From Eledone cirrhosa (lineage: Eukaryota): 64,000 nt of DNA. The first letter of the stretch is position 1. Each line of letters opens with the position of its first letter. A model generated the notes under the pieces. That model saw only the letters and a list, made by a program, of their open reading frames with translations, ran no database searches and was not told the origin of the DNA. The position numbers and the translations under genes are program-made. The stretch lies in contig OZ024743.1 in assembly GCA_964016885.1 (NCBI GenBank), positions 169,012,001 through 169,076,000 on the forward strand, written 5' to 3'. Shown here piece after piece: positions 3,725 to 49,810 of this stretch.

Positions 3725-3725
<1 letters not shown>
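1510..3725 (+). mobile_element. Tx1/L1-like element, internally deleted (5' UTR + ORF1 start joined near 2355 to ORF2 C-terminus + 3' UTR)
   Basis: Asn-rich ORF1 start; 2060-2350 homologous to 40960-41240 (minus); ORF2 C-terminal motifs ICCQHPLHGGLGMP and FFKFHLKRKIRVE; 3' UTR CCCCCTATTGGGGG hairpin, AATAAA, then (ATT)n. Confidence 0.85.

Positions 3726-3758
<33 letters not shown>
3726..3758. repeat. (ATT)11 between two head-to-tail Tx1 elements
   Basis: Directly visible. Confidence 0.97.
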
Positions 3759-5377: not shown

Positions 5378-5410
<33 letters not shown>

Positions 5411-5492
5411 ACAGTTGCTTCTGTTGTTGCTGGCATTTCTGCTGCTGGTTTTGATGGTTGAGTCACTGGCGTGGGCAGGAGCGGTGGCCTCA
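4495..5492 (-). mobile_element. Inverted Tx1 segment (ORF1 C-terminus to ORF2 start) inside ORF1 of the 3759-10107 element
   Basis: Plus-strand text is collinear with about 39510-40557, a minus-strand Tx1; peptide QNDTHYIALNLNNNHLLHYIQHNTSISEKDYTTPQ matches ORF 39913-40218. Confidence 0.85.
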
Positions 5493-6701
5493 AATTTTCG
5501 CTACCCCGCAAGAGGTGAAGTCTCACTCTTTGGAGATAATCTTGGAGCCCTCCTACTGCGGGCAGGAAATTGCGACGTGCCCATACTTTGGCTGGCCACG
5601 TCTGTCGTTGCTGGAATCGAGGACAGGACGACCATGCTGCAAGTAGAGAAAATAGGGAAAGAGAACTGGTGAGCTATAGGCATGCAAATGCTTATACAAA
5701 CCGACCAGGAATGTATCGAGGCTATCCCCGATATCATAGACCTCGAGGAAGGACTCCAATTCCCTATAAGCGTGGAAGTAAGACGGCCAAAATGTTATCA
5801 CTGTGGGTCAAAGGCTCACTTCAAGGCCTTTTACCCGCAGAAGACTGCGAAGAAGAAGCCTCCCCCTCCTTCCAATGCCTGGTCCGCTGCTACCAAGAGC
5901 AGGGCAGGCAACAAACGCTGAAGACCCTTCCACGGTGAGTAGGAGGACAACATCCGTGACACCCGTACCAATGCCACAGACAACTAAAGCAGCAGCAGCA
6001 GTGACGGCAACACCAGTAGAAACATTTGCAGTAGCTGCACCAGCAACAAAATCGCCGGAGAGGGCTCCACTACCACCACCAACAGCCGTGGAAGAAAATA
6101 CCCCTCCCAGACGCCACGGAATCCGATATGGAGTCTGGGACGGGTTGAAGTGGCAAACGGTCTGCCACAAAAAACAAAGAGAAAACCCTTAGATTCACCC
6201 TCCAAAAGCGAAGGCAAACAAAGAGGGGTAAAGGCTGCAAGGCGACTCGCAGCAAGCCACCACCATCACCACCATCAACCACCATACCACCACCACCGGC
6301 ATCACCACAAACACCAACATCGCAAACACAACAAGACAAACATACCTAACAGCAGCAACAAAAAAACAGCAACAAAACCAAACCCCTCAAAAACATTACA
6401 CAGCCATAAACATGGCAAATAAAGAACTCTTAGAACATATAAAGCAGCACACAGACAAAAATTACTACACCCCACCAACACTAAGAACTCTCCCGAAAAA
6501 TATAAACATTATTCAAATTAAAATAGAACATTATAAACTTTTAAAAGAAAAATTCTCCCAACGCAGTTGGATACTTCGGAGGGTCAGTTACGACATCATA
6601 TTGGAGACACCACTGACCAGCCAAAGGGACGGTTCAACTGTCCCTTTCCCACATGATCAGGGTAGGTGATCCTTTCTCACTTACTCAGTTCCTCACCCAA
6701 C

Positions 6702-9700
6702 ATGGCCTTACTTAGAATAGACAGTATAAATGTACGTGGCCTGGCGTCATCTTAGAATCAGGGCCACTTGCTTAACGATCTCAGGTCACTAAACATAGAT
6801 GTGGCCATCAGCGAGATCAGAATTTCCGAAGCACGAGACTTCGCACCGATCCTCGGCGGCTACGATGTATACGCATCTCCCAGCCGTCCGGGAGTGGGGG
6901 CGGAGTTGCTGTGCTTTTTCGAAGAGGCTTGGATCTCGCCATACGGGCCATCTTCCTGGACCCAGAAGGTAAGTCGGTGGTACTGGACGTGACAGGAAGC
7001 GTAGGCAATGCTTTCAGGCTAGTAGCCGTCTACACCCCAACAGGGGCAGGACGGCCAGATTTCTTCAGACGTCTAGAGTCCTTTCTTGGAACGTCCTGCT
7101 CTTTAGTGTTAGTGAGTGTCTGGAACGATATCTTAGATGCACGCTGGGATTATGTGAGGCTAGTAAACAAGGATCCGATTACTGGAAGGTGAACGCGTCT
7201 TTCCCGGCGTACAAAGCTTACAGAGACGGGATAAGCGAATTAGTTAAGTGTGCGTTGACGGGTGCGATCGTCAACAACAGCTGGCGGTTTACCCTGAAAA
7301 GGGCAATTAGAGTAGAATCAATAAGGTTTAGCAAACGAGTAAAGATAGAGGAAAATAGAGTAGAAGGAGAGCTAGTTATAAAGCTAGAAGAGGCATTTAG
7401 AACAGGCATCGCAACCGATGTGCTTGCGGCAAGATTAGCACTCGACCAATTCTTCAATGCAAAGTACGAAGGCTGCGTTGTCAGAGCTAGAGCGCGTGCT
7501 CTGAGACAAGAGGGGACAAAAGCTGTCCAATGGGCCCGGATGTTGGAGGCGCGACGTGGTAACAAAGCCACAATTCAATCCTTGCCTCACCAAAACGGAC
7601 ATATGTTAGTCGAACCCGAGCAGATGTGTGAAGCTTTTCAGCAGCACTTTGCTCAACTGTTTGGGAGCGACGGTGGGACAGATCAGATTATGAACTTCAG
7701 TGCATACCTTGAGGTATTGCCGCAGCTCTCAACGACCGCAGTGCAGTATTGCGAAAAGCCGATAACAGCCGTTGAAATACGGGAAGCGTTGTACGACTGC
7801 CTGAGGGTTAAATAGCCAGGTTTGGATGGTTAGCCCTACGAGCTTCATGCGTACATGTCAGACTTTTTCGGCGACCTCTTGGCAGCCGTCTACTGCAATT
7901 GGCAGCAAAACGGGAGCATTCCCAGTTTTGAGAACCTGGGAGCGGTGTCGCTGTTGAAAAAAGACCCAAACAATGGGGACGTTATAGACAACTACAGGCC
8001 CATAACTCTGTTAAACACAGACTTCAAGATTTTGGCCAAGGTGTTAGCAACGCGATTGACGCTTGTCGTCGGTAATCTGGTAGGAGAGGCGCAGACATGC
8101 GCCATTCTAGACAGATCCATCCACGATAACCTCCACCTCATGTGATTCATCATAGAGAGGGTGGTTAAGGAACCTGGTATGGGTGGGGCCCTGATCAACT
8201 TAGATCAATCTAAGGCATTTGATAGGCTCGACCATCAGTACCTGGCGGCGGTCCTCGAGGCGACTAGTTTCAAGCTCATTTTCAGGGGCTGGATCGCTGC
8301 GATGCACAGCAACATCTGCTCAGCAGTGAATGTGAACGGTCATCTGTCAGCCGTTCAGCATCATACACTCGGTCCGTCAGCGGTGTCCCCTCTCGTCACT
8401 CTTGTACGTCTTGGCCATAGAGCCGTTACTGCACAAACTGGAGGCGATGTGAGACATCCCACGTGAACTGGGATGTGGGAGATCGGTATCGGCTTACGCC
8501 GACGACGACGAAACCGTGGCGGTGTCAAGCGCCGGAAATGTCCAGATGTTCGGCACCGTTCCCAAGGAATATGAAGCAGTGACGGGAGCAAAGTTAAACC
8601 AGGAAAAGTCGTCGGGCTTACAGCTCGGCACCTGGAGAGGCAAGTCCGTGTCGCCCGACAGCGTCGTGGGGGGCTGGACGGTAGGACTGGTTAAATTGCT
8701 CGGAGTCTGGTTAGGTCCGGACCTTCAGATGGAGAAAAACTGGAGCGAGGTGACGAACAGGGTGGCCTCTCTCACCCAGAAATGGGCCAAGAGGAAGCTG
8801 TCCCTGAAAGGTCGGGCAGATGTGACGAATGCGTTCATCACATCCGTCATCTGCTACCGCCTAACCGTTGTGCCTTGCCCCAGCCCAAGTCTGACAAAAA
8901 TGGAACGCCTCCTTCTCCGCATTTTATGGAAGGTGCGTGTTCCCATGGTCAGACGACCCATTTGCTCTCAACACCTGTTGCGTGGAGGGCTGGGCGTGCC
9001 GTGGCTGATGATGCGCAAACACGCGCTGAGGCTGCAACATCTCTGGTGCTTCATTGACGGTGATTAGGAGTGGTCACCGTTTGCCAGACTCCGTTTGCGG
9101 AGCTGCAGTCCTGGAAATTTCTGGTGCTTCCTTGAGGTGTTTTTCCCCAGCTCGTCTCATTAACGGAGCTGCAGTCCAGGATCAGCAAAAGACCGAGGGA
9201 TAGCGCTTGAAAGATGGAATGTTTCCTAGCGCTCACAGCCATCTACGATCTGGGCACTAGTATCGGTGGAACATCCACCTCGGATAGAGGGCTATTGGAG
9301 GGGAAGAGTGATGACGTTCTCGGGGAGACCCTGGGCGTCGAAGACAATCAGCTGTTCGCTCTCTTCAAGAGAACTTTCAACCGGGGCCTATGGACAACTT
9401 CCAGAAATCCCTGGCCTGGTAGTGCTACCGGGGAGAGTTGCCGGTTCGAGATAAGCTCTACAGGCACGGAAGTGCCGTCAGCCGAGATGCGCACACAGCG
9501 ACGAAACCGTTGTGCACGCACTCGTTCAGTGTCCGAGCATTGCTGACTGATGGAGCTATGTCGAACATTTCTGTCACGTGTAGGGCGGATCCGATTAACG
9601 ACTGTGTGCATTATGCCGATAGCCCCGCCGTCCTCCTTTTAGGAGGAAGAAGGGCAGGCAGTTTTCATCTGCCTGGTGGCTATGGCGAAAGAGATTGTAT

Positions 9701-9897
9701 GGTGGACAAGGTTGAAAGGATTCAAGACGGACACTTTCCTCTTCGGCGAAATCCTGATTAACTTTTTCAAATTTCAGTTGAAGAGTAAAGTCAGGGTGGA
9801 GAGACTAGTGCCGTCATCAAATACGTTTCTTGAAAGGTGGGTGAAAGTGGCGAGACTGGTCCGAGTGAACGGACCCGCTCTGTGTATGCGCCAGTAG
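6702..9897 (+). pseudogene. Disrupted Tx1 ORF2 (APE endonuclease + reverse transcriptase + C-terminal domain)
   Basis: Fragments carry RLVAVYTP and WNDILD (APE); YRPITLLNTDFKILAKVLA, LDQSKAFDR and SAYADD (RT); GGLGVP. Multiple stops, frameshifts and deletions. Confidence 0.9.
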
Positions 9898-10107
9898 ACT
9901 GAGGAGTAGAAAACTGAGAGAGGGCGCTTGCCCTGGTGGTCTGGGTGGCCATGATCTTTTGTGTGGTTTTCGCCACGAGTGACCCTCGGAAGGTTCCCCC
10001 CTATTGGGGTATTTTGATATTTGATTTTTTAAAATATTTCTGTCTTTTTGTTATAACCGTTCTGTGCCGTCTGCAATGTTTTTCTTCATGTTAGCCCTAA
10101 AGAAACC

Positions 10108-10132
10108 ATTATTATTATTATGATTATTATTA
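10108..10132. repeat. Imperfect (ATT)n shared by a Tx1 3' end and a Dong-B 3' end (tail-to-tail)
   Basis: Directly visible. Confidence 0.85.
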
Positions 10133-11928
10133 CTTGCATTTATCTTGCTTTATGTTCATACGAGTTATCACCAAGTCACAACCAGTGACCTCAAGAGACA
10201 ACAAGGTCCGCCATGTTCAAGAAAGAACATACATATTCACACATGCATCCTTAGTGTTTAGACTTGTGATGTACTTATATTGACAGGATCTTCCTTAGTA
10301 TATGGGCAGTTCCCATTAGTACTATCTTTTGTATTTCTCCTATACGCGGGTTTCCTGGGATTTGCGATAAGTAGTCGTTAGACCCCTTAGGTATCATTCC
10401 CAGAGCGCCTACAACCACTGGTATTGTTTTAGTTCTCAATTTCCACATTTTTCCAATTTCTATCCCCAGGTCCTTATACTTGCTCAATTTTTCAAATGTT
10501 TTTATAGATACATTCTTGTCTATTGGAACAGACATATCAATTAGCAGGCATACCCTCCTTTGAAAGTCCTTCAATATTATATCAGGTCTATTTGCATCTA
10601 TTTTTCGGTCTGTTTGGATGCTAAAGTTCCACAAGATTGAGATGTGATCTTTTTCAAGTATGGGAGGTGGTTGATGCTCCCACCAATTCTTTTGATGGGG
10701 CAGGTCAAAATGCTTACACATTATCCAATGTATGTATTGTGCAGCTCTGTCATGCCTGTTTAGGTATTCGGTTGGAGCTATAGGACTGCACATTGAAATT
10801 ATATGGTCAATGGTCTCTGGTTGTTTTTTGCATACACGGCATAATGGGCTGCACCCATTTTTTATTATGTTGGCTTGGTAATTTTTTGTTGGCAGACACT
10901 GATCTTGTGCCGATATAATCAGTCCTTCAGTCTCCGATTTCAGTCCAGAGGATGCCAACCACTGATGCGTTAAAGTTTTGTCAACATCAGGATTGTTAGC
11001 TCGCTCTGGGTATTTTCCATACAGAGGCTTTTCTTGCCATTTCTTAGCCAGTTTCTGTAGCAGTTCTTTCTTTGCAGTTACTTTTACCTGCTTTGCTTTT
11101 TCTGTGTTTTCCATTTCAGCAGCAAATGGGACTTCTGAAATGTGTAGTCTATTACTGTATCTTTGTGCATCTTTTGTAATGGAATATGATCTTTTGGTGA
11201 GGAAGGGGTGAGCCAGCAGTCCCATAATTGTTGATGTAGACGTTTGGCCGGTGGCAAGGTCACCAAGTCAATCTATTTATATCTTTTGCTAGCCTCTCTC
11301 TTGTCTAGTGATACCGCCACCTTCCCTTTTCTCTCTCAAGTTAACAGGGGAATAGTGTCAGTAGCATTGAATGAGTGGTGGCGGCGATGATGGATGTGGT
11401 GGGGTGGTGGCAGCGGTGGTGTTGTGGTTACTGATATAGTATCTATGAGTTTGTGTTCGTATGTTTAATATACATTTTTATTATATTTTGTGTTGACATA
11501 TTCCCGTAAAATTTGAATTAAACATTTTTTAAAATTTGAGACAATAATAATAGTAATTATTATTATGATGCTGGTGAAATTGCCGTTATCTGGTTGTTAT
11601 ATTTAGTGTGATGGGATAGGTAGTGTATCAAGTTTCTGGTGTTGGTGAAATTGAAATTGCTGCTGTTCTATATAGTGTAGACAGAGGGTGTTTTGTTCCA
11701 TTTATAACCATTTTCTTTTTTTTAATACAAAATATATAATACAAAATTGAATATTTGAGCGATACAACAATATAATATGGATCCGAAGCTTTATGGGACC
11801 TCATTCGGTGCCTTTATGCAACATTTGTGCTAAGAATTGTTCTTTCACAATTGATTTAAATATGTTAAAAATCAAAAAACTTACGGGAGCAATTTCGTGA
11901 CGTTCTACCACCTCGTGCGTCTTCTTCC

Positions 11929-11931
<3 letters not shown>
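10133..11931 (-). mobile_element. R4/Dong-like family B element with large internal deletion (5' UTR joined to C-terminal nuclease region)
   Basis: 10133-11200 is the near-identical reverse complement of about 53220-54298; 11600-11910 is homologous to the Dong-A leader at 58132-58445; bounded by (AAT)n on both sides. Confidence 0.82.
10275..11225 (-). CDS. 316-aa ORF: CCHC zinc knuckle + restriction-like (PD-D/ExK) endonuclease of Dong-B, no RT
   Basis: CRVCKKQPETIDHIISMC, RHD, RPDIILKD...IDMSVP...EKLSKYKDL; uninterrupted. Confidence 0.7.
   Translation of the reverse strand: MGLLAHPFLTKRSYSITKDAQRYSNRLHISEVPFAAEMENTEKAKQVKVTAKKELLQKLAKKWQEKPLYGKYPERANNPDVDKTLTHQWLASSGLKSETEGLIISAQDQCLPTKNYQANIIKNGCSPLCRVCKKQPETIDHIISMCSPIAPTEYLNRHDRAAQYIHWIMCKHFDLPHQKNWWEHQPPPILEKDHISILWNFSIQTDRKIDANRPDIILKDFQRRVCLLIDMSVPIDKNVSIKTFEKLSKYKDLGIEIGKMWKLRTKTIPVVVGALGMIPKGSNDYLSQIPGNPRIGEIQKIVLMGTAHILRKILSI

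Positions 11932-11979
<48 letters not shown>
11932..11979. repeat. (ATT)16 between two head-to-tail Dong elements
   Basis: Directly visible. Confidence 0.97.
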
Positions 11980-14900
11980 GTTCTTTGATCTCAGTCATTG
12001 ATGTTATTTAACTGGAAAGTTTGTTGAAATGAGTTTTGATGCTGTTTCCATCAAACATGCCATTTAAAGTGTTCCAAAAAACAGGGATTTAACCACCCTT
12101 GAAAACATTTTGAGATAGTACCTAGTGCTTAAAAGGCATGCTTGCTGTTCCCAGCAAGCATGCCTTTTGCAATGTTCCAAAAAGCGGGGCTAGACTAATC
12201 TTTTTAACCATCCTTGGAAACTCTCTGAGATAGTATCAAGTACGCCTATGACAATCGGGACGACCTAGATTTCATGGCAGTTCCAAATCCTTTTTAACTC
12301 CCACTTTAAATCCTGGTATCGGTTAATTTTCTCCCTATCCTTTTCTTGCACTCTCGTGTCAAATGGGCAGGCTACATCTACAATCAGGCACGATCTTTTT
12401 TCATTGACCATAACCACCATGTCAGGTCTATTGTGTACTAATTTCTTCTCCGTCTGTATCCTAAAATCCCATAGCACCTTCACCTGATCGGTTTCCATCA
12501 CCGACTCTGGCTTATGCTCATACCACTTCTCAGAATGTGGTAAATTGTTTCCTTTTCATAGATGCCAGTGGGTCACCCTGCCTATCACATCATCTCTACA
12601 GCCTTTATAGTGAGTCTGGGCCTGGTATTTACACTCGGATGCAATGTGAGCCACAGTCTCCTCTCTCTCTCCACAGATCCTACACAGTGGGCTAGCCTCC
12701 TTCTTGTCAATATGGTGTTTCAGCCACTTCGTGTTGAGGGCCTGTTCTTGCGCTGCCATTAACATTCCTTCTGTAGCTTTTTAAGGTCTCCTTTTTTTAA
12801 CCAGTTCCATGTCTGTGGATCTCTAGGTTCAGTTTTCTTAAAGAAGATTCATGAAGGTTGCTCTTCCTCCTTGTTGAAGGTTGCTCTTTCTCGCTGGACA
12901 TCCCCTGGTCAATTGTCCCCTCCTTCAGTACAATTTTGAGCATTGGCTTCCTACTATCAGTCACGTATTTGTGTAGGTTGTTTTTCTCCACCTGAACACA
13001 GTCCCCTATGCTGATAAGACCTCTTCCACCTTCAGATCTCCTTAAGTAGAGTCTATCGATATCACTCATTTTGTGGAACATGATGTAGATAATCAATAGC
13101 TTCCTAGTCTTCCTATCCATTTCTTTTTGTGCAGCAACATTCCATCTCAGAATTCCCGCACTGTACCTAATAATAGACACAGCTCGGGAATTTACTTCAC
13201 TTATGACATTCCTACTGTTCAGAGGTGACTTTAGTACGCTCCTTACTCTCCGAATGTATTCAGATCTTATCAATTCCTTCATTTTTTTTTGTTCTTGATG
13301 TCATCTGCCTCCAGAACACCTAAATATTTGTATCCCTCTTCAGTGTCAATTTCATTTATCATCTCACCTGTTGGTACCTGGATTCCGTTGCTTCTACTCA
13401 ATTTACCCCTCTTCATCACTAGCACTCCACACTTATTAATACCAAATTGCATACATATATCATTGCTGAATATACGGACAGTGTCAACAAGTACATCCAA
13501 CTCCTTTTCACTCTTCCCAAAGAGTTTAATATTGTCCATGAAGAGGAGGTGGTTGATGGTAAGCTCTCCTTTTCCCAACTTGTATCCTGCTCTCACTTAT
13601 ATAACGGTCAGGGGTATCAAGGCAAGGACAAACAACAGAGGTGACAAACTATTTCCCTTGAAGATACCACTCTTGATCTTCACGCCTCCCAAGGATTCTC
13701 CACCTGATGTTTACTCTGTTTCCCAGGACTTCATACTTTTGCTCAACAACTGTCTGATGTTATCTGCTACCTTGAAGATCTCTAGGCTTTTGGTTATTCA
13801 AGAATGATGTACCATGTCGAATGCCTTTTTGTAATCTATCCATCCCATGGCAAGACCAGTGTGCCTCCTCTTGCAATTCCTCATTACCATCTTATCAATA
13901 AGTAACTGGTCCTTTGTACCACGGGACTTCTTTCGGCATCCTTTCTGTTCGTCCGGTAACAAGTTGTTTATGTGGAGGTGATGGTTGATTTCCTCAGACA
14001 CACTGCTTGTTAACAGTTTCCACACTACGGACAGACATGTGGTAGGCCTATACTTGGTAACATCATTACCCGTGATTCGGTCTTTTATTACCAGAACTCT
14101 GGTATTTTTTGTCAACCCACTCTGGTACTTCACTCGACATCAAGCAGTCATTGAGTCATTGAACATGGTTGTCAATTTCGGGTGAAGGGATGTTATATTT
14201 TTAATCCAATACACTTGCACACCATCTGGGCCTGGTGATTTCCAGTTGGTAAGTTTTTTGGCCTGCCCTTTAAGGGTTTCAACTGTGATACTCAAATCAG
14301 TTTGTTGGTGTGCTTGTTCACAAATCTCCTTTTGAACTGTCTCAATCCACACTGCCTGACTATTATGTTCAACATCCTGCTCCCATATTCCTCTCCAGAA
14401 AGTCTTAGTCTGTTCCGCCTCAGGGATCACGTCGTTGCCTCTTTCTTTCCCTTCAAGCTGTCTATACTGACTGACTCTGTTCTCATAGCGCCTAATCTTT
14501 GCACTTTTTGCTACAATGCGTTACTTCAGTTCCTCTATGATAATATTTAGCTTTTCCCCCCTAGTTTTGTATTTTATTTCCAATCTATCTTTAGTGCCTA
14601 TGTTTTGTAATGTTCCATTCAGTAAGGACTCAAGCTTTCCAATGTCTTTTCTCATTTCCTTGATTTGACCATTCAGTCGTTTCTTCCACCAAAGTTCTGA
14701 TCTTTCTTGTTTGTTTTTTCCTCTCGTTTTTATGCTAAGTAATTTCCTCACCGCATTTGCGGTTGCTTTGAGGATATTGTTGCATCGGTGAAGGTTCCTC
14801 GCCTCAAGGTATGGGATGACTTTGTTTAACTTAGCTGTTGCTTCTTTTAACTTTTTCTTGTCTACAAATCTTAGGTTCATAGGTTTTCCACTATCATTTT

Positions 14901-15005
14901 TCAGGATATCAACCAAATCTGCCCTAGCCCATCAGCATTCATTTCCCCAATGGCCGTATCTTTGTTCCAGATGTTATTTATTTCAGCATTCAGATCATTG
15001 TCTGC
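11980..15005 (-). mobile_element. R4/Dong-like family A, older degenerate 5'-truncated copy
   Basis: ORF fragments 14521-14916, 14140-14430, 13798-14133, 13279-13596, 12797-13282, 12556-12765 and 12265-12501 are collinear with the 1130-aa protein; local duplication near the 3' end (about 12050-12250). Confidence 0.92.
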
Positions 15006-15006
15006 T

Positions 15007-15825
15007 TCTAATTTTTGTATCGAGCCTACGGACCTCTGTGCTTGACCAGTTGATGACATTGAAACTGTAAGTTACTACTGGTATGGCAAGCGTGTTTATG
15101 GCATCGATCCTATTCCTTGCATTCAATTCCGTTCTTAAGATTGCTCTTACTCTGCGGTAACATTCCTTCCTTATCCTTTCCCTCATTGTCGAGTGCTTGA
15201 TTCCGTCTCCTTCACAAACACCTATATATTTGTAAGTTTCCTCTTGATCAAGTCACTTATCACATTCCCCCCGATCAAGATTAATGTCTGAACTTCTCAG
15301 CAGCTTTCCTCTGGTGAACGTGGCTTTGGCGCATTTATCTAGTCCAAACTCCATTTTAATATCACCTTTTATCTGCTTCACAGTGGATAATAGCCCTTGC
15401 AATTGCCCACCATTTTTTGCAAACAGTTTCAGGTCATCCATGTAGAACAAGTGATTAATGGTTTTGTCATAGACTATGTTTTGTTTCATTGAGCATTCTA
15501 TTTAATGGTATAAGCGCGTTGCAGAATAAAGCGGTGATAAAGAGTCACCCTGAAAAATTCCACAATTAATATTAACTTATCCAGCTTACAGTGATTTTTT
15601 TTCACTATTCAAAAGGAGTGTTGTTTTCCATGTTTTCCTGACAACGGGAGATATTTTGAAAATCTCTAAACACTTTTCAAGCCAACTGTGTGGCAAACTA
15701 TCGAATGCTTTTTTGTGTATCCAAGCAATTAATAGATTTCTGTGTCTATTATCTTCCAATATTTTGTTAACCAAAAGCTGATCCTTTACAGCCATATGAG
15801 CCTCGTTTACACCCTTTCTGCTCAT
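15007..15825 (-). mobile_element. R4/Dong-like family B internal RT fragment
   Basis: HLFYMDDLKLFAKN and RERIRKECYRRVRAIL; matches about 52300-53030 in reverse. Confidence 0.88.
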
Positions 15826-15859
15826 TGGGAATTATATCATTTGTTATCAGGTGATCATA

Positions 15860-16560
15860 TGTATATTCAGTTAGGACTGATGTTAAAATTTGTTGAGTTT
15901 CGGTGGATCAGGTACTTGGAGGTCATGGGTTTGGCAAAATGCGATTCGTTTGACAAACGATCGTCTTTACCGTCACAAGCTGATGACCAAATTGAGGCAC
16001 AATTTACAATAGCCAGAACTAAACTTAAAAAGATTCTAGAACAACATAACAGAAAACAGAATAGAATTGTGACCCAGCAACTGGGGGACAGCGTAAATGG
16101 CTTGTTTAAGCTCATGCAGCGCTCGCGAAATGGAGAGATTGGATGCTTTCCAACAGACAAGTCTGACAGAATATCAGTCCACAGCCTGCCCCGCTACATC
16201 CAGGCAATTCAAACCTACATCATCGACACAAGAGAGGTAACACCATAAGAGTATGGGGAAAGGGAAAAAACCCTCAACACTCATATGATGATGTGAACTA
16301 GCATAATACAGCCTAATAAACGGACTACCAGCAACTTTATATATGGGCTTCACAATGACCACAAGGCAAATACTGACACAGTCACAGGACCACCATCACG
16401 GCCAGTCTGTGGAACTAACATTGCTAGCAACTACAGAGTCTCTTGATTCCTCTCCCTGATCATAAGCCCTAAAATCGAAATGTCCCCAGCTATACGCGAC
16501 AGCACGGAGGACCTCCTGAGCAGAATCAGCGAATGCAACCTGTCTAGGGACCTAACAGGC
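15860..16560 (+). mobile_element. Penelope-like element RT N-terminal fragment (degenerate, distinct family)
   Basis: Manual translation gives FPTDKSD..., LY(G)LH.DHK...GPPSRPVCG and DSTEDLL, resembling PLE DKS/KDHK/RP motifs; stops and frameshifts. Confidence 0.55.
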
Positions 16561-18263: not shown

Positions 18264-18385
18264 CGTTTATATATATATATGCATAAATGAATGAAGTAAT
18301 TCCGTCGGAAAAGTCCAGGAAAAAAGAGTGCTCTATGTAGATAACAGGGCTTAATAGTTATGTAATAAACAACATAAGGCAATTA

Positions 18386-18447
18386 TTTCATTTACCAGTG
18401 GTTTCTTAAAAGCAAAAAAACTTTCGCTTTCAATCATCAGAATGAAA
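18386..18447 (-). ncRNA. Type I hammerhead ribozyme (family M)
   Basis: Minus strand: tttcatt CTGATGA ttgaaagc..gcttttaa GAA ACCA-c-TGGT A aatgaaa. Confidence 0.8.
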
Positions 18448-18585
18448 AAATCCTGGCGTATTTATTGACGTTGGATTTTAAAAACAAAAATGCAATCTAT
18501 ATGAAAGTGAGGCTGGAACAGGAAGAAGGAAAGGAAAAATAAAATAAAAACACACATGCAAATAGGCACACACACACACAATTAT

Positions 18586-18621
<36 letters not shown>

Positions 18622-18627
<6 letters not shown>

Positions 18628-19443
18628 GTTTGTATATGTATAATAAAGCCAAAACAATGCAGGTATGGACATAGAATAAAGAATGCAAATGCAAAAGATA
18701 TTGTTGACAATTAGTCTTTTACCTTAGATTTATTTAAATGTCCTTAATTTTCGAGATAATATCTCTTCTTCAGAGGGAAGTAAAGCTCTCAAACCAGTGT
18801 TCTAAATAGCTTGCCAAGTCATACTGACAGGAAATGGTATAGAGTATCTGTTCTATCTCTAATGTCAAAGAGTTAAAATTAGGTGGATAAAGAGTAGTCT
18901 CCCTTTAAAAGGGGTTTGTTTTTGTGTTTTTTTTGTTTTTTTTATACATGCCCGTTTAAGTGTGTGGGAGAATGCATGAAGGTGTAAGTATGTGAGTGTG
19001 TGTGTGTGAGTGTGAGAAGATATGTCTATTCGTAAATGTGGGGGAATAGGTGTTGTCTGGTGTTAGAACTGGTTTTGTGTGTGTATGTGTGAGAGAGAAT
19101 AAGTGGAGGTGTAAGCTTGTGTGTGTGTGTGCGTGTGTGTGTGGGGTGTGTGTAAATATGGGGCTAGAAGCTCTATCAGGTTATAAATTGGGTGTTGAGT
19201 TCTAGTCTATTATTGATTGGTGGTTGTGTTTATCTATAATTAGTGCTTCCTTAATTCTAAGATTGCCGAGGTTTCTTTCCTTAGTTTCTATCCTAACTGT
19301 TATGGTTTTGACGGTGTTTTTGCATTTAACTAGGTGAAACACCTAAAAGACTGATTGTCAACAATATCTTTTGCATTTACATTCTTTATTCTATGTCCAT
19401 ACCTGCATTGTTTTGGCTTTATTATACATATACAAACGTTTAT
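18622..19443 (-). mobile_element. Penelope/Poseidon-like PLE 3' fragment with an inverted copy of its 3' end at the 5' junction
   Basis: Minus-strand translation HLVKC...IETKERNLGNLRIKEALIIDKH/PPINNRLE (GIY-YIG C-terminus); about 100-bp inverted repeats at 18622-18721 and 19344-19443; begins at a (TA)n tract. Confidence 0.8.
18742..18776 (-). ncRNA. Minimal type I hammerhead ribozyme
   Basis: cct CTGAAGA a gagat-att-atctc GAA AATT A agg; palindromic stem III; AATAAA just downstream. Confidence 0.7.
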
Positions 19444-20030
19444 ACCTCATTACACAATGCTTCAAGTGAACTATAACCTCCTCCATATATATATATATAT
19501 ATATATATACATACACACATAAATACACACACACATATATACACACACACACACACATATATATGTGTATATATATACATACACATACATATACACATAC
19601 ATACATACACACATAAATATCAACATATCCATACATACACATCCATATATACAACCACACACATATATATATATATATATATACACATACACATGCATAT
19701 ACATACATACATACACACAATCATACGTATATACACACACCTCTACTTACTCACACACACAAATAAATATAAGAAAAAATACATAATAATAAAAAAACAT
19801 AAAAATGAATATAAAGACTATTATAATGTTGACAGCGATACAGGCAACAAATAAATGAACAAACACGTGGTAAGCAATACACACAAATGCACGTACACAT
19901 ACATACGTAAAAATAAATACATACACACACTCTCACACATAAATATACATATACAAATACATAAACACATACATACGCATACACAAATACATACACACAC
20001 ACACACACACATATACATATATACACACAC

Positions 20031-20094
<64 letters not shown>

Positions 20095-20098
<4 letters not shown>

Positions 20099-20755
20099 GA
20101 AAAGTATAGAAATTGTTGTAGCGAGAAGCTAACAGTATTCCATAACATATATGCGACTATAGCGTCAAAATGGGAAAATAGTTAACATAAGATATTGGAA
20201 AAATAATTCAGACTCAATTCAAAAGGAACAGGATATAGATTTATCCAACAGAATTTAGAGAAATCCAGGGAAAAATCAATAGACCCTTAACTCATGATAA
20301 AACAAAGTCTAAAGTACTCAGCCTTCAATTTGGGACAACTTCAAATGCTCTGAGCAGAGCTCTACATGGTAACCAAGGTCTCACTGGTAATATGCCAAAA
20401 AGGGAATTTAAAAGCAGGCTAGTTTAACATCATGCGTGGTTATTAAAATAAACGCACATGTGTAAAAACAGGGCTGGTGACGTCAGAATGAGACAAATGT
20501 TTGTTTACATGAAACAACAGTCAAAAACATTCCGAAAGAAAACTCTACAAAAAGAGTTCAGCAAAAAGCAATATCATCGCGGTTTTTTTCCAAAAAAAAT
20601 ACTGGGATTAGTCACAAATAATTTAAGCACTCTAAGAAATAAATCCGAGTATATATATATAAATGAAAAGTATAGAAATTGTTGTAGTGAGAAGCTAACA
20701 GTATTCCTTAACATATATGCGACTATAGCGTCAAAATGGGAAAATAGTTAACATA

Positions 20756-20760
<5 letters not shown>
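20095..20760. mobile_element. About 670-bp insertion in (TA)n with about 100-bp terminal direct repeats (20095-20194, 20661-20760); probable PLE-type pLTR remnant
   Basis: AAATGAAAAGTATAGAAATTG...GTTAACATAAGATA occurs twice with about 2 mismatches; (TA)n on both sides. Confidence 0.55.
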
Positions 20761-20834
<74 letters not shown>

Positions 20835-20964
20835 CATACTTAACCATACAAAAATACACATACATATACATACATATCACAAACACGTACATACAAATAC
20901 GAACACGCACATATATATGTGTGTAAAACTCATTCTTAGATAATTCATATGAACCTTATTAAAC

Positions 20965-20994
<30 letters not shown>

Positions 20995-20995
<1 letters not shown>

Positions 20996-21934
20996 CGATA
21001 TTAATAAATGGAAACTATATTTATAAAACCATATTTATTTCATTATACATATTTCAAGGATACCAAGTTAAATTATGGTATGCCTTCATCAGACAAAATA
21101 CAATATATATCAGTTTTACAAATAAGCATTGACGTACCTTTTCAAAATGCGACCATTACTTTTGGAGGACATCAGGATAGTGGTTTGTTTATATTATTTT
21201 AGTAAGTCTTAGTGTTAGGGACAATTACAAAAAACGGAGAGGGAGAAAAGCGTGGAGAAAAAACGGAGAGAGAGAAAAGCGTGGAGAAAAAAAGGAAGAG
21301 ATAAATAAAGAAAAAGAGGAAAGAAAAGAAGAAAAAAGGAAAAAATAAGAAAACAGAGGAAAGCAACAGAGAGATATCAAACCATCAGACAGAGAGAAAA
21401 AACTCAAGAGAGAGAAATAAGAGATAGAGAGAGGGGGAGAGAACGAAAGCCTTAAGTCATGACATATTTCTAATTTTATTTAAATAAATAAAATTAGAAA
21501 TATTAATATTCATGAATGGAATATACGTATATAATATGAGAAATTAATCATTGTTTAATTATGATTAGATATTTAGTTTAAAAATTGAGATCAATATACT
21601 ACAAATTGGAATTTAAACATCACAAAATGTATATTGCTATAGAGATTATCTATTGTACAGCACGTATATATAGGCAAAGATACATAAATATATATATACA
21701 CATACATTCAGAAAATAGTCATTATATCTACTCCCGCATATAATATATACATACAGAGCATAAGTGATTTTTTTTATTACTGCTATACATTACTTGTGTT
21801 ATTAAATAAAAAATTCACCGTATATATATATAAATATATAGGATTAACTTTCATGCATTTATGGCTGTTAAAATTATGCATATCTGCAATCAAAACTGCA
21901 TGGGTAAGCATGCACACACATAACTCCTAGCTAT

Positions 21935-22019
<85 letters not shown>

Positions 22020-22895
22020 TGTGCGTGCATCTTCACCCGATTGGTATACACGCGTCACTCATGCATATATACAGGCATATATATATAATCACAAAAAAGC
22101 ATATAACACATGTATATGTATGTTAATACACACATATATATATACATATTCGTATAGAGATAAGTATACATCAATATATTACATAGTACAATTGAGTATA
22201 TAAAATACAAAAGGATTATATTTTGGAAATATAATTATATCAATATAAATTTAAAATACAAAAGCATTATATTTTGGAAATATACTTATATCAGTATAAC
22301 TTAAAAGACAAACGAATTCTACAAATATCAAAATATTAAATATTTTAAAATATTATAGAATATCTTAAGTTAAAATAATATGTTTAATAGATTTAGTATA
22401 GAAATTTATCTTACGTATATTTTAATCAAGATATTGAAAGGATAAACTTTTGAAAATTATGAGAAGCTATCAGAATAAAAACAAACCTAATAAAAAATAA
22501 ATAAAATATTATATCAATATAATTTAAAAAAAAAGGATTCTACAGATATCAAAATATTAAAATATTTTAAAATTATAGAATATTTTAAGCTAAAATAATA
22601 TGTTTAATATATTTAGTATAGAAATTTATCTTACGTATATTTTATTTAAGATATTGGAAGGATAAACATTTTAGAGTAGTTTAGTATATCTATATTTATA
22701 TTTAGGAAGAAATATTTATACTTGAGTATTTAACCAAAGAAAATGAAAAAGAAAAAGGTGAAGAATTCTAATGATCTATCGACAGGTTTCATATATTAAC
22801 CAAATTACTTAATTAATTATACTACATTTTAAATTTATATTTATATTTAAACGTTGAGTTCAATCTATGTCTGCAGCAACTAAATAAATAAATTA
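20995..22895 (-). mobile_element. Naiad-like PLE 3' part: last codons of GIY-YIG ORF + long AT-rich 3' UTR
   Basis: Minus-strand translation near 22820-22890 gives [21 protein letters not shown]; homologous to 31495-33114; hammerhead near the 3' end; internal duplication (22316-22447 and 22537-22667). Confidence 0.7.
21036..21100 (-). ncRNA. Type I hammerhead ribozyme
   Basis: tattttgt CTGATGA aggcatacca..tggtatcctt GAA ATATGTAT A atgaaata; stem I pairs with G-U wobbles. Confidence 0.72.
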
Positions 22896-22913
22896 TTCCA
22901 TGCATACGTACAT

Positions 22914-22944
<31 letters not shown>

Positions 22945-23217
22945 TATATAACTCAGTATATATATATATATATGAGAAAGAACATAATTATTATATATAT
23001 ATATAAAAATTAAATATTGTATATATACAATATTTTTTTATATATACAATATTTATTTTTTATATATATATATATAATAATTATGTTCTTTCTCATATAT
23101 ATATATTGAGTTATATATGTATATATATATATGTGTGTGTGTATTTACGTATGCATACGTATGTGTATGTATATATGTGTGTGTAGGTATATATGTGTAA
23201 GTGAGTATGTATGTGTA

Positions 23218-23271
<54 letters not shown>

Positions 23272-23275
<4 letters not shown>

Positions 23276-23495
23276 GACAAACATAGAATATTCGAAAATA
23301 TTCTGTATGTTTATAATAAACATTTTGAAGACCTAATCGCTATAGAATAGAATACGTCACGTATTACAATTTGAGATTCTCGATAAAAGCAAGGGAAGTA
23401 ACCTACGCGTTTCATTCTTATTTGAAATCATCAGGTCTTCAAAATGTTTATTATAAACATACAGAATATTTTCGAATATTCTATGTTTGTCTTCA
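23272..23495 (-). mobile_element. 224-bp PLE-like mini-insertion with 63-bp terminal inverted repeats and a hammerhead core
   Basis: Arms at 23272-23334 and 23433-23495; minus strand carries cCTGATGA tttc-aaataa-gaat GAA ACGCGT A gg. Confidence 0.75.
23399..23440 (-). ncRNA. Minimal hammerhead ribozyme core (stem I imperfect)
   Basis: CTGATGA...GAAACGCGTAGG with palindromic ACGCGT stem III; first pair of stem II is mismatched. Confidence 0.6.
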
Positions 23496-23529
23496 CATAT
23501 ATATCGCTATTTCAGAGCATTAAATCCAA

Positions 23530-27465
<3,936 letters not shown>

Positions 27466-27528
27466 CATCATTCGTCGACTACTGTCATATAAGGCTTGAG
27501 CTCTGCCGTAGGGTCAGGTTTCATCCTA

Positions 27529-27658
<130 letters not shown>

Positions 27659-27661
27659 TAC

Positions 27662-29718
27662 AGACACACATAGGAAGAAGCCTGACCCTACGGCAGAGCT
27701 CAAGCCTTGTATGAGGCTATTATATAAAAACACACAAAACCAATATATAAAAAAATTAATATCTAAAAATAAAAAAGAAATTTGGTATGTGAAGGGTAAG
27801 GCAAAAAAATAGGGGGGAAAAGGAGGGGGAAATGACATAGGAAAAGGTTTAAATATAAGGGGAGATAAGTTAGAAGGAGAATACAAGAGTACAGAACGTG
27901 GATTCAGCAGCTAAAAAAACCGTAGTAGAAGTAAAGAGCAGAGAGGGAGTTCAAGGCGATTGAGTTATCATAGGAATGTCAATCCAGTTACAGATCAGAT
28001 GTGATTTCAGATGAGGACAACATCTGAAGATCTCGGTCTTTGAGTTCAGGCAAGCAGAAGTGGCTTTCAAGTTTAGCAAAATTCTATATTTTTCTGTGGT
28101 GCACAAAGAACAATTCTTTGTGCCCCTTTGTTACTCCCTCAAATGGTCTAAAATAGACCAATCGATAGAGTACGGGATGTTTTTATTCTTGAATTCCCAC
28201 ACCTTACTTGCGAGGGCCGTTGTTGTTCGTTTATCGGCGTGCTTAAAAGAAGCGACATGTGAGTAAAACCTGGTTTTAAACCTGTCCTGAGTCATTCCGA
28301 CATATCGCTCACTCCTGGCTGGCTGGTTGTTGATTAAAGGTGTTATTTTAGCCTCATAAACAACAGATTTGGTGTTATATTTGCCCTGCAATGGGCATTC
28401 ATCCGGCTTCCTGCAACTGCATCCTGGATTTGTTCTCGTATGATTTGAATTAGTGATCTTGGACTTCATAGATGGGCAACAAGAGTAACTGATCTTAACT
28501 ACATTCCTATTAAATATCTTATAATATCTATGATTAGGAGGACAATGTTTATCTAAGAGTTCAAGGAATTTCCTTCCTACATTAGTTTTGACAGTTAGAG
28601 AGAAGGGGGTGTAAACCAAATAATTTTCCTTTTCCTGTTATTGTGGTTAGTTTTAGGGGTTGGGCGGAGTAGGTAAATAATAAATTTGTTCAGTAAAACC
28701 GCTGTTCTTAAGGGCTTTATTATAATAAGGGGCGGCTTTATTAAAAATGTCTATAGCCGAAGATAAGGTAGAAATCCTACGGCTAATGTTGGGAATAAGA
28801 TTATTAAAAACTATAGGGGGTGGCAGACTCTTTGTGTATATACCTAAGATTTTCATTAGGTTTATGATAAGGTTTAAAAGAGGCGGTAAGTAGATCAAGA
28901 TTAATATCAAGAAAGTTAGCATTGGTAAGGTTCGTATCTATAGTGATTTTAAGGTTAAGATTAGCAAAGGTATTGATTAAATCTTTACGGAATTTATCAA
29001 GGTTATGGCCGTTGGTGGTATGAGAAACTGCCAATCCGTCATCACGGTATAAACCGATATTAGGGGAAGGAAATTTCTCTTTGAGGGTGTGGAAAAGGAA
29101 TAATCCTACTAAGTCACACACATCCGCACTGTCATATGAACCCACTGCAACATCAAAAGAGTTTTCAGGGTTTGACTTTTTAACCCAAATATTTTCATTA
29201 GTAAAGAGTAAAGTTTTTCTAGCATGAAAGATAATGTCTTCATCTAATTTAGAAATATTAATGAAGGGTCTTGCAAACTCTAAGGCATTATTTAATAAGG
29301 AAACAGTAATAGAGGGGTAAAAATCAACAATATCAAATTGGGTAAATCTACACTTATTTTTACCTTGTATATTATTAAACCAAGAAATAACAGAGGAAGT
29401 ATTTAGCCACTGTGATAGATCAGTCTTAGGTCTAATTTGGAGAATTATTTTCCTTAAGATTTTTTTACTTGCAAGGCCAACTTCGGTAGGTCGATTAGTA
29501 AAGTCTAATTTATGGTCTTTAAGGGTAATATATTCTTTAGGCTTAGCTAGTCTTTCAATCCGGTTGTCTATTTTTAAAGAACTAGCTAGTTCTTTAGCTT
29601 CTTTATTAATAGTATTGTAGGTATTATTATTAGTTAATTGATATTTGTTGGTGATACTATTAGTTAAAAGTTGGTTATACAAAGTAATATTAACTTCAAA
29701 GAGGTCTGCTATGGGCAT
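27662..29718 (-). mobile_element. Naiad-like PLE, 5'-truncated and frameshifted RT + GIY-YIG, with 3' UTR
   Basis: LKDHK, QFDIVDFYPSI, LYRDDGL; CSCRKPDECPLQG, VVYEA...YVGMT..FKTRFYSH; next frame NCSLCTTEKYRI..LNSKTEIFRCCPH ending near 27950; the last 53 bp are mirrored at 27485-27537 across a (TA)n. Confidence 0.9.
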
Positions 29719-29779
29719 TTATACCCTTTTCTAAATATATATATATATTTTTTTATTTATTGCTTGTCAAATTTTTATA

Positions 29780-29813
29780 TATAAAATATTTATTTCATAT
29801 TATTTTTGTTCTT

Positions 29814-29865
<52 letters not shown>

Positions 29866-29885
29866 AGTTATATATGTATATGTAT

Positions 29886-29922
<37 letters not shown>

Positions 29923-30021
29923 TATGCATACGTATGTGTATGTATATATGTGTGTGTAGGTATATATGTGTATGTTAGTAAGTATGTATGTGTATGTATG
30001 TGTATGTGTGTGTATGTGTAT

Positions 30022-30053
<32 letters not shown>

Positions 30054-30293
30054 TTTAGAGTTAAATAAGGTTCATATGAATTATCTAAGAATGAGTTTTA
30101 CACACATCTATATATATATATATATGTGTGTGTTTGTATGTATTTGGTTGTGCGTGTTTGTGATATGTACGTATTTGTATGTGTATAATTGTATGCCTAT
30201 GTATGTATGTGTGTGTATATATATATATGTATATATATATATGTATGTATTTGTATATGTATGTATATATTTGTATATGTATGTATATATTTG

Positions 30294-30327
<34 letters not shown>

Positions 30328-30713
30328 TATGTATGTATTTGTATATGTATATTTATGTGTGAATGTGTGTGTATGTATTTATTTTTACGTATGTATGTGT
30401 ACGTGCATTTGTGTATATTGCTTACCACGTGTGTTTTTTAATTTATGTGTTGCCTGTATCGCTGTCAACTTTTGTCTTTATTATTTTTATATATATTTTT
30501 TCTTAGATTTATTTGCGTGTGTGAATATGTAGAGGTGTGTGTATATTTTTCTAATATTGTGCATGCATATGTATGCATGTATATATGTGTGTATGTATTT
30601 GTTTGTACGTACGCGTGTATATACGTATGATTGTGTGTATGTATGTATGTATGTATGTATGTATGTATGTATATGTATGTGTGTATGGCTATGTATGTGA
30701 ATGTGTATGCATA

Positions 30714-30760
<47 letters not shown>

Positions 30761-30897
30761 ATATATGTGTGTGGCTGTATATGTATGTATGGATATGTTG
30801 ATATTTATGCGTGTATGTATGTGTGTGTATGTGTATGTGTATGTATATATATACACATATATATGTGTATATGTGTGTGTGTATGTATGTGTGTATG

Positions 30898-30932
<35 letters not shown>

Positions 30933-31166
30933 GTGTATGTATATAATCGTGTGTGTGTGTGTGTGTGTTTGCATGTGTGTTTTTATTTTATTTTTCCTTT
31001 CCTTCTTCCTTCTCCCGCCTAACTTTCATATAGATTGCATTTTTGTTTTTTAAATTCCAATTCAATAAATAGACCAGGATTTTTTCATTCTGATGATTGA
31101 AAGCAACGTTTTTTGCTTTTAAGAAACCACTGGTAAATGGAATAATTGCCTTATGTTGTTTATTAC
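29780..31166 (+). mobile_element. Family M microsatellite-rich hammerhead repeat, longest contiguous copy
   Basis: (TA)/(TG)/(TATG)-rich body with unique anchors shared with three other copies; 3' hammerhead. Confidence 0.78.
31084..31142 (+). ncRNA. Type I hammerhead ribozyme (family M), predicted cleavage after GUA at 31135
   Basis: ttcatt CTGATGA ttgaaagcaa-cgtttt-ttgcttttaa GAA ACCA-c-TGGT A aatgga. Confidence 0.82.
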
Positions 31167-31290
31167 CTCCTTAGTGATTTTTATTATATATTTTTACCCA
31201 TAATCTTCCAATACTTTAGTGTATGTACACTCCATATTCTTCGGAGTTTTCGGCTTGTATTGGCCGATAGTGCTTCTTCTAGTTTTAATT

Positions 31291-31328
31291 GCCCTGATGA
31301 GTCCTTAATAGGACGAAACATTGTTGGC
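31291..31328 (+). ncRNA. Minimal type I hammerhead ribozyme in a separate pLTR-like fragment (about 31167-31375)
   Basis: gcc CTGATGA gtcc-ttaata-ggac GAA ACA-t-TGT T ggc, then AATAAA at 31330. Confidence 0.85.
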
Positions 31329-31373
31329 TAATAAAGACTTTTGATGTATTGAAGGCTTCTTTGTTTTATTTTC

Positions 31374-34170
<2,797 letters not shown>

Positions 34171-48680: not shown

Positions 48681-49268
48681 ACGTCGAATGGGGTACTATT
48701 AGATTTTTAATTCAATTAGAGTCGTCGAAATTTTCACCGACTTACGGGCATTGAGGATGACATCAACTTCGAAATCCTTAACCACCGTGAGCGTTTTAGC
48801 GAAAATTGATAGCTCTAAGAAGAAGTGGTGAAGTGATGGAGGAGTAGTAATTATTGACCTCAAATTGGATAACACGGCAATGTTCCTTGTTGCATATACC
48901 ATTGAACCAATCAATCACCGCGAAAGAATTTTTTCACAGTGCGAGAGAGGCCAAGCTTTTAATTTCATGTAAAATAGTATCTAAAATCATTTTACTAAGT
49001 CTACCTAAATCGAACTTCGTTGGGTTAATAAGCCGAATAGAGGGATTGTTGGCGAAATTGGGTTTGTGATCCTTCAGGGTAAAGTGGGGAGAAATAGGGT
49101 CCAGATTTACAGTCCGGTCCTGGATGTTGAGTTCAGAGGTGATTTTAAACCCAGCATCGTTGATGTCTTTAAAAACACTCCGATTTGTTTTCCGGTAATC
49201 CTTAGTTACAGCATTATGTAGCAGTTGATGGTAAGTACTTCGCTCCAGTTGATATAGATTGCCAGTTA
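48678..49268 (-). mobile_element. Degenerate RT fragment of the 24466-26157 PLE family
   Basis: Collinear with about 25220-25810 (FAKTLTVVKDFEVDVILNARKSV is shared). Confidence 0.88.
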
Positions 49269-49310
49269 TACATATATATATATAGATATAGATATAGATA
49301 TATACACATA

Positions 49311-49810
<500 letters not shown>

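Follow-up and report, generated by a model that had tools for sequence, protein, structure and literature searches.

A simple-repeat-rich family with a terminal hammerhead motif and the features of a Hydra-type Penelope-like retroelement end

What kind of sequence is a repeat that reads as microsatellite over most of its length, encodes no protein and yet closes on a conserved ribozyme motif? The question is raised by a family of non-coding repeats of about 1.4 kb, here called family M, in a window of 64,000 nucleotides, which is the whole stretch of DNA analysed. A sequence-only reading had proposed two origins for it, a retrozyme-like non-autonomous element or the very long pLTR of a Penelope-like element (PLE) whose reading frame lay out of view. 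The class itself is not new, as Hydra PLEs, the hammerheads in them and PLEs of the non-autonomous kind have all been known before. Autonomous Hydra elements have a single ORF with RWK and DKT motifs, a CxCx5C linker and, at the C-terminus, a GIY-YIG domain (PMC8557442). Neither a description of family M (in literature that took in few subscription papers and left out Repbase) nor one of any non-autonomous Hydra family (in the literature searched, including passages and tables of PMC8557442, with Repbase outside the search) was found.

Four colinear copies were placed in the 64-kb window with a map of complex 14-mer anchors (Table 1), in keeping with the ordered unique anchors reported earlier, and to these must be added a fifth, inverted piece of the 5' part that the sequence-only reading did not mention. 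In the unique 3' part of 200 nt, any two of the four copies (six pairs) differ by 5-12 substitutions, an agreement far beyond chance for simple repeats. Specifically, M1 and M4 differ at 5 positions and M2 and M3 at 6 (of 199 nt), while the four cross pairs differ at 10-12, and a middle block agrees with this pattern (7/233 between M1 and M4; 13/~213 in cross pairs). These counts therefore divide the copies into two subfamilies, M1 with M4 and M2 with M3. The copies also lie as nested tails-out pairs by subfamily, M1/M4 outside and M2/M3 inside (18357-34170), as if each event had left an inverted pair and later insertions had hit the central TA run; the pair divergences of 2.5% and 3% give no order of the two events. 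The 5' ends had been described as variable, which is true of the truncated M2 and M4 but not of M1 and M3, copies from different subfamilies that share a boundary at about 29768 in M3 coordinates. This boundary sits within a TA-rich palindromic stretch and could be a mere truncation hot spot. Within M3, 57% of the sequence falls in runs of at least four T-purine dinucleotides, (T[AG])4+, the long frames are simple-repeat peptides only, and 1322 nt of non-coding sequence precede the hammerhead core. Only about 200 bp look unique, so family M would largely be masked or miscounted as microsatellite, just as had been anticipated.

Table 1. Coordinates of family M and of the features discussed with it (positions in the 64-kb window)
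Feature	Position	Strand	Remarks
M1	18357-23000	minus	full-length, split by three later insertions
M1 pieces	about 22900-23000, 20830-20995, 19484-20098, 18357-18640	minus	ordered anchors
Insertions splitting M1	about 18640-19480, 20100-20760, 20990-22890
M1 tail	18281-18356	minus	~76 nt past common 3' end
Hydra leader box in M1 tail	18350-18327	minus	59 nt after predicted cleavage site
Inverted 5' piece of M	about 23020-23230	plus	head-to-head with M1 around short palindrome; ends in (TA)n
M2	26867-27465	minus	5'-truncated, internal deletion, weakened hammerhead
M3	about 29768-31166	plus	longest uninterrupted copy, 1399 bp
Candidate 5' splice donor GTAAGT	29978-29983	plus	also in inverted head at 23197
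Candidate 3' splice acceptor	30980-31017	plus	pyrimidine tract ending CCAG; 73 nt before core
M3 hammerhead	31083-31142	plus	model of outside Hydra loci, 27.3 bits, E 8.8e-05; folding
M3 stem I	31083-31089 with 31136-31142	plus	7 bp
M3 core CTGATGA	31090-31096	plus
M3 stem II	31097-31122	plus	10 bp
M3 GAAA	31123-31126	plus
M3 stem III		plus	ACCA-C-TGGT; predicted cleavage after A31135
M4	about 33250-34170	plus	5'-truncated at (TA)n run
Element A	27954-29718	minus	5'-truncated, decayed Hydra PLE ORF: RT, CxCx5C linker, GIY-YIG
Element B	23559-26654, ORF 24466-26157	minus	uninterrupted Hydra RT ORF without GIY-YIG
Element B pLTRs	26290-26654 and 23559-23922	minus	365 bp; 6 differences in 364
GCTC...GAGCACT boxes at element B	26195-26177 and 26291-26236	minus
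Family N	31167-31376	plus	5'-truncated 3' end of another Hydra-type family
Family N hammerhead	31286-31333	plus

Every one of the four copies ends in a minimal type I hammerhead motif. All four agree exactly in the core (CTGATGA, GAAA) and in stem III and vary in loop II, as had been noted before, and M2 adds one change in stem I and one in stem II. Searched against Rfam at gathering thresholds, the 64 kb returned no family; among 150 of 167 matches listed at E ≤10 the M hammerhead is absent, and that of family N alone appears (29.1 bits, below the cut-off of 34). The miRNA models that flood the same list match TA/TG repeats and were rejected as artefacts. A dedicated model, R1, was built from 34 Hydra hammerheads outside the window, dereplicated from 46 loci, and has a covariation of 0.784 over three helices, reached by none of 500 shuffles. 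Applied to the 64 kb, it scores family N at 31.9, M4 at 30.5, M1 at 30.3 and M3 at 27.3 bits, the only matches with E <0.001 among 15 listed; the next stands at 16.4 bits, and M2 scores 15.2 bits (E 0.19). Moreover, stem III of family M parallels by eye the acca-a-tggt of Hydra-1_oBim (File S2, PMC8557442). On folding the bare motif, the hammerhead trails the most stable structure by at most 0.1 kcal/mol in M1 and in M3 and by 3.6 kcal/mol in M2. Folded as a dimer through stem III, it is 8-9 kcal/mol better than two monomers, and with more flanking sequence an alternative hairpin beats the hammerhead fold. The M hammerhead is predicted to cleave weakly, as a dimer or with the help of protein. 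Metazoan PLE hammerheads are reportedly suited to dimers and poor at cleavage in vitro (PMC4209133), and that of Poseidon needs protein and is dispensable for insertion in vitro (PMC11167929).

Beyond the ribozyme, the predicted cleavage site is followed by the common 3' end of family M after 31-36 nt, consistent with the shared end that had been claimed. M2 and M4 end there in TA runs and M1 does likewise after its tail; M3 is the exception, being joined to family N at a 3-nt microhomology. Insertion into (TA)n, a trait of Hydra-clade PLEs, is accordingly found in family M. Apart from TA runs, nothing else in the window matches the M1 tail; a 14-nt likeness at 49420, which lies in one arm of a palindrome that is unrelated, was set aside, with 3 of 100 shuffles scoring as high. 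The tail does contain CATAGAGCACTCTT, which occurs once in the window (0/100 shuffles) and which can be found by eye in the tail of Hydra-2_Ajap (14/14 nt) and, one base out of register, where Hydra-1_Ajap starts (14/14 nt; both in File S7, PMC8557442).

The identity of this tail was pursued in 77 metagenomic Hydra loci (L001-L077) from the best 80 of 406 confirmed stretches, of which 65 regions upstream of the ORF start gave 46 leaders after dereplication (200 nt upstream of the ORF). The heptamer GAGCACT is present in 36 of these 46 leaders, compared with a mean of 0.43 and a maximum of 3 over 100 shuffles and with a single antisense occurrence. It forms the 3' half of a GCTC...GAGC-ACT hairpin that usually stands twice per locus, about 80-120 and 19-46 nt before the ORF start. 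Downstream of the ORF, 46 of the 77 loci have a hammerhead (dereplicated, 34; many of the other 31 contigs end early), and in 28 of these 46 the box lies 53-86 nt past the cleavage site, a range that includes the spacing in M1, the regular expression for it having been written after M1 had been seen. Model R3 of the first leader box, made from 28 outside sequences, places the second box of element B (20.0 bits, E 0.025) and then the M1 tail (17.5 bits, E 0.088, with one unpaired position) at the top of 12 matches in the 64 kb. An optional tail that matches the start of the element body, another Hydra-clade trait, is therefore present in M1, and a homologous tail was seen in sequencing run X6, though the 76 nt of M1 compare with 30-40 bp quoted for Hydra tails in PMC8557442. 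The hammerhead model, the leader-box model and the spacing of the box together identify family M, on sequence comparison, as a Hydra pLTR-like end that in some copies passes into the start of a Hydra leader. Of the two origins first proposed, it is the pLTR of a PLE that gains support, and the clade can now be named. We found no description of the leader box in the literature searched, which took in few subscription papers, and we put the GCTC...GAGCACT box forward as a candidate RT binding or start signal.

Is the family more than a set of local duplications, a possibility that had been named as fatal to the proposal? Of the 15 public sequencing runs listed for 30970-31376, 11 (from 7 studies) contain part of that stretch, and none is recorded as an RNA run. 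Four of the 15 were aligned to 30966-31376 (the end of M with family N) at 85% likeness and gave 2070 contigs from X1 and 6924 RAD reads from X13 (organism A), 34 contigs from X4 (organism B) and 4 from X6 (organism C); X1 possibly comes from the same sample as the window, and summed contig depth was not used as copy number. The variants of M are many and stand on up to 89 contigs each, so the family is dispersed rather than locally duplicated. Among the loose ends listed, 47 X1 contigs exit at 31166 into ATAAC(TA)n, which confirms both the common 3' end and the (TA)n target. One X6 contig extends 128 nt past the end of M, its first 30 nt resembling the 76-nt extension of M1, and these 30 nt and the M1 tail make up the leader sequence seen beyond M. 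Family M consequently has what is expected of a non-autonomous PLE in being dispersed and multi-copy, its 3' end constant and its 5' end cut back in some copies. An exact 27-nt M motif had no occurrence in JGI metagenome contigs or in IMG/VR. Among 40 of 98 variant rows listed, the hammerhead changes fall at N7, in loop II, in stem II (G.U to G-C) and in stem I (G.U to A-U), as expected for a motif under selection; since these are 40 of the 98 rows, changes in the core may be hidden. X13 read ends at 31147, 31059, 31287 and 31305, together with opposite-strand joints, lie at AATT sites and were discarded as artefacts of the RAD library. An abundant X13 read set on 30991-31050 keeps the pyrimidine tract and CCAG with both flanks different, and stems either from a related subfamily or from RAD loci, a single one or a few.

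Two Hydra reading frames lie among the M copies. Both match a family of proteins of roughly 700 aa (1360 matches among 8000 candidates scored; tblastn) and carry features that are marks of the Hydra clade (PMC8557442, section 11), while Pfam returned nothing at E <0.03 on either ORF. Element A, which by eye resembles Hydra-1_Obim, a likeness that hints at a cephalopod as host, retains the linker and GIY-YIG, has lost its 5' end with RWK to truncation, and is broken by frameshifts and a stop. Element B has RWR and DKT but neither linker nor endonuclease. The claim that no ORF is attached to family M holds in the sense direction only, as the ORF of A starts 50 bp from the 5' end of M3, head-to-head on the opposite strand, and B lies beyond M2. 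Each of these elements has its own 3' end, and M is therefore the UTR of neither; A shows the kind of element that is a possible helper of M, not its parent. Some further observations concern B. Its frame ends short of the linker and GIY-YIG, roughly where the frames of its two closest relatives, P0001 (56%) and P0002 (50%), end as well; it groups with them in a quick tree (SH-aLRT 91), and a Hydra sub-lineage without endonuclease is possible on this sequence evidence. Both B pLTRs read CAGAAG where the hammerhead core has CTGAAG. About 830 nt separate the stop codon of B from this degenerate hammerhead, and long Hydra UTRs thus exist in the host.

Should M nevertheless be the 3' UTR of element A, with M2 the direct and M3 the inverted copy, or else a product of local duplication, one would expect what is indeed seen around A: M2 and M3 flank it tails-out and share a minority haplotype (6/199 nt against 10-12 across subfamilies), and inverted flanking copies are typical of PLEs (PMC8557442). 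From the A stop, however, one passes through 250 nt that are unrelated, then a foldback and then (TA)n before reaching M2. M1, M3 and M4 run on upstream of the M2 start as M sequence and not as A UTR, and the unique end of M fails to align to the A UTR (6 of 100 shuffles as high). The dispersal of the family, with relatives under other organism labels, weighs against both versions, which are already largely refuted and which we regard as barely tenable.

Far more weight attaches to the long-UTR alternative, in which M would be the very long 3' UTR or pLTR of an unseen ORF-bearing Hydra family, its parent perhaps of the endonuclease-less B type. All copies here would then be 5'-truncated, two of them cut at the same TA/palindrome hot spot. 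Heavy 5' truncation is normal for PLEs (PMC8557442), and a Hydra leader comes after M both in M1 and in the X6 contig. Because the M tail is a leader of the sort found before ORFs, at some source locus M is, or once was, followed by an element body. The UTR of B in the same host is long, TG/TA-flavoured, has GTAAGT at the stop codon and an acceptor-like tract before the pLTR; its length and the TA-rich nature of the 5' boundary are what keep this alternative in contention. Against it, a profile search of 2395 six-frame segments assigned Hydra coding pieces (E <0.01) to A, to B, to one B-like fragment (48700-49450) and to nothing else, leaving no Hydra coding remnant in or sense-upstream of any M copy in the window, M1 and M3 included. 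Published Hydra elements are generally shorter than 3 kb (PMC8557442), and 45 of 46 outside loci place the hammerhead 69-534 nt past the end of the ORF, the remaining one being L004, a tandem, with 1111 nt. Homology of M to the B UTR was considered and rejected: it was significant only against dinucleotide shuffles, 1-5 of 40 Markov controls reached the score, and another TA/TG-rich stretch outscored M.

Family M therefore differs from an autonomous Hydra element in having no ORF and at least 1322 nt before the hammerhead. That two subfamilies end at one 5' point without a coding remnant, and that 1322 nt is far outside the range of 69-534 nt, favour the reading of M as an ORF-less derivative, copied in trans into (TA)n by a Hydra RT/GIY-YIG protein. 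We lean towards this reading with a confidence slightly better than even, and consider the long-UTR alternative the less probable of the two, though still a substantial one.

The other origin proposed at the outset, a non-LTR retrozyme, would have M transcribed from tandem arrays, cut into monomers by the hammerhead and spread via circular RNA. M is non-coding, low in GC and equipped with a type I hammerhead, features it has in common with animal non-LTR retrozymes, for which a pLTR origin and PLE-dependent mobility have also been proposed (PMC7229834; bioRxiv 10.64898/2026.07.22.740005) and in which monomeric copies are common (bioRxiv 10.64898/2026.07.22.740005). If the candidate intron discussed below were spliced, the RNA would measure about 360-440 nt, and the head of M is faintly like its tail (score 37, with 0/100 dinucleotide shuffles as high, largely driven by TA). 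On the other hand, the head-tail test on M3 alone falls below chance (99 of 100 shuffles as high), none of the four copies is head-to-tail, and tandem hammerhead units were not found in this window or in short contigs. The loose ends listed at 31166 lead to (TA)n or to a Hydra leader and not to an M head, and the M1 tail is, as described, without a counterpart in the window. Rather than a monomer of a few hundred bp, M3 is 1399 bp long, exceeding the families of 51-972 bp (bioRxiv 10.64898/2026.07.22.740005) and the circles of 170-400 nt (PMC7229834), and M shows 5' truncation as TPRT products do and carries the tail of a PLE. In its strict form, with tandem monomers of 170-400 nt and circular RNA, the retrozyme half of the original proposal is not supported, and we consider a retrozyme origin very unlikely. 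Family M nonetheless supports the idea that retrozyme-type elements come from pLTRs.

The simple-repeat body of M invites a further explanation. Three copies, M2, M4 and M1, have 28, 28 and 27 pyrimidines in the 30 nt of their acceptor sites, and when the 3298 YAG sites of the window are ranked, these occupy three of the first four places. M3 itself carries A31016C where the other three have A, and this A is kept in 4050 of 4103 X13 plus-strand reads and in 99.9% of X1 depth. Comparable sites, YAG with at least 24 pyrimidines in 30 nt, occur in only one of 45 outside Hydra UTRs, so a strong acceptor is not a general Hydra feature. The GTAAGT donor is weak alone, the chance of at least one in M3 being 0.10-0.19; GTGAGT near 33521 is an alternative candidate donor. 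So strong an acceptor suggests a retained intron of 1 kb; no intron-less copy of M was present among the rows listed from the runs aligned to 30966-31376. We predict from sequence, tentatively and with well under even confidence, that M holds a real retained spliceosomal intron of about 1 kb (29978-31017). As an observation on B, AG-GTAAGT stands there exactly at the stop codon (24465, minus; chance 0.008-0.03 with the same controls) and a pyrimidine tract with AG before the pLTR at about 23990 (minus); the two bracket a TG/TA-flavoured stretch of about 480 nt, itself a candidate intron.

Intron retention has been reported for PLEs (PMC3846280), and introns at the pLTR kept after retrotransposition are documented for the Penelope of Drosophila virilis, whose 75-bp intron ends beside the hammerhead, and for Chlamys-3_cRei, with introns of 398 and 751 bp (PMC8557442, PMC4209133). 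That of M differs in being predicted, about 1040 nt long and filled with microsatellite, and it would end 73 nt before the core. Among Hydra-clade PLEs, Hydra-1_Obim, Hydra-2_Ajap and Penelope-17_HM have a sense minimal type I hammerhead near the 3' end as M does, and the clade shares with M a loop III of 1-2 nt, insertion into (TA)n, an optional tail and inverted 5' copies (PMC8557442); the ORF-less state of M, its simple-repeat-rich stretch before the hammerhead and its candidate intron set it apart. The non-autonomous Chlamys PLEs (MRC1; PMC8557442) are likewise ORF-less, with a 3' end like that of autonomous elements and a bias towards insertion in microsatellites, but they belong to another clade and kingdom, are mostly without hammerheads and are often multicopy head-to-tail. 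Poseidon PAc of Anolis carolinensis resembles M in having its 3' end at either of two points, one giving a tail and the other none, in its AT-rich targets and in a hammerhead near the pLTR end, and differs in being autonomous and in starting its cDNA in an AC-rich stem-loop inside the ORF (PMC11167929), for which the leader box would, by analogy, be the Hydra counterpart. AT-rich DNA is nicked by its protein, which begins cDNA at two internal positions separated by the length of the genomic tail (PMC11167929).

With these systems in mind, the mobility of an ORF-less M may be pictured as follows. The RNA would begin near 29768, pass the hammerhead and enter the leader. A Hydra protein might bind the GCTC...GAGCACT stem-loop on this RNA and nick (TA)n; by analogy with anole Poseidon, a cDNA start at the pLTR end would yield the tail-less copies that form the majority, and an alternative start about 76 nt further on would yield tailed copies such as M1. 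Halting or re-priming of the cDNA at internal TA runs could produce 5'-truncated copies and head-to-head inverted ones, and the new TA runs could draw further Hydra-type insertions, building up the nest at 18-34 kb. Most of the simple-repeat body may be the putative intron. A pLTR alone can mobilise unrelated sequence in trans (PMC3846280), and PLE habits (PMC8557442, PMC3846280) are matched by the TA run at which M4 is cut short, by the palindrome at the head-to-head junction of M1 and by the M3-N microhomology. The most comprehensive form of the proposal, a high-copy gene-less Hydra-type retroelement with a retained intron for a body and a doubled leader stem-loop serving as RT binding or start signal across the clade, we judge unlikely as a whole.

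Were the gene-less, intron-retaining reading true, a sizeable part of masked TA/TG microsatellite in genomes of this kind would be retroposed sequence that spreads and seeds its own (TA)n targets. The leader box is a testable candidate for how PLE proteins choose their RNA and for the origin of tailed insertions, and the copied non-coding unit, if it does hold a 1-kb intron, would offer a handle on intron retention by PLEs. A recent octopus repeat annotation lists Penelope-like families, with ribozymes unmentioned in its main text (PMC13282606), and the repeat library behind it might contain M.

Other residents of the window deserve mention in their own right. Family P, a second long non-coding family, has copies at 20990-22890 and 31420-33090 (both minus); good alignment of the two is confined to 150 bp at either end, and their hammerhead-like end is weak (14.0 and 14.3 bits). 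At TA runs stand four structures of foldback or inverted-arm type (18621-19444, 23267-23495, 27485-27715 and 49419-49810), with arms of about 60-190 bp and 1-4 mismatches; two contain a hammerhead-like motif (at 18773 and 23434, minus), and in those two inserts the 5' part is duplicated in inverted orientation at the 3' end. The small insertion within M1 at 20084-20761 (minus) has a 112-bp direct repeat of 98% identity and resembles a pLTR-body-pLTR unit without an ORF. Finally, an open non-LTR retrotransposon frame of 1141 aa (RVT_1, zf-RVT) occupies 59142-62567 (plus), a 99%-identical partial copy of this element lies at 1-1466, and many decayed LINE-type copies are spread across much of 1-16000 and 34500-64000.
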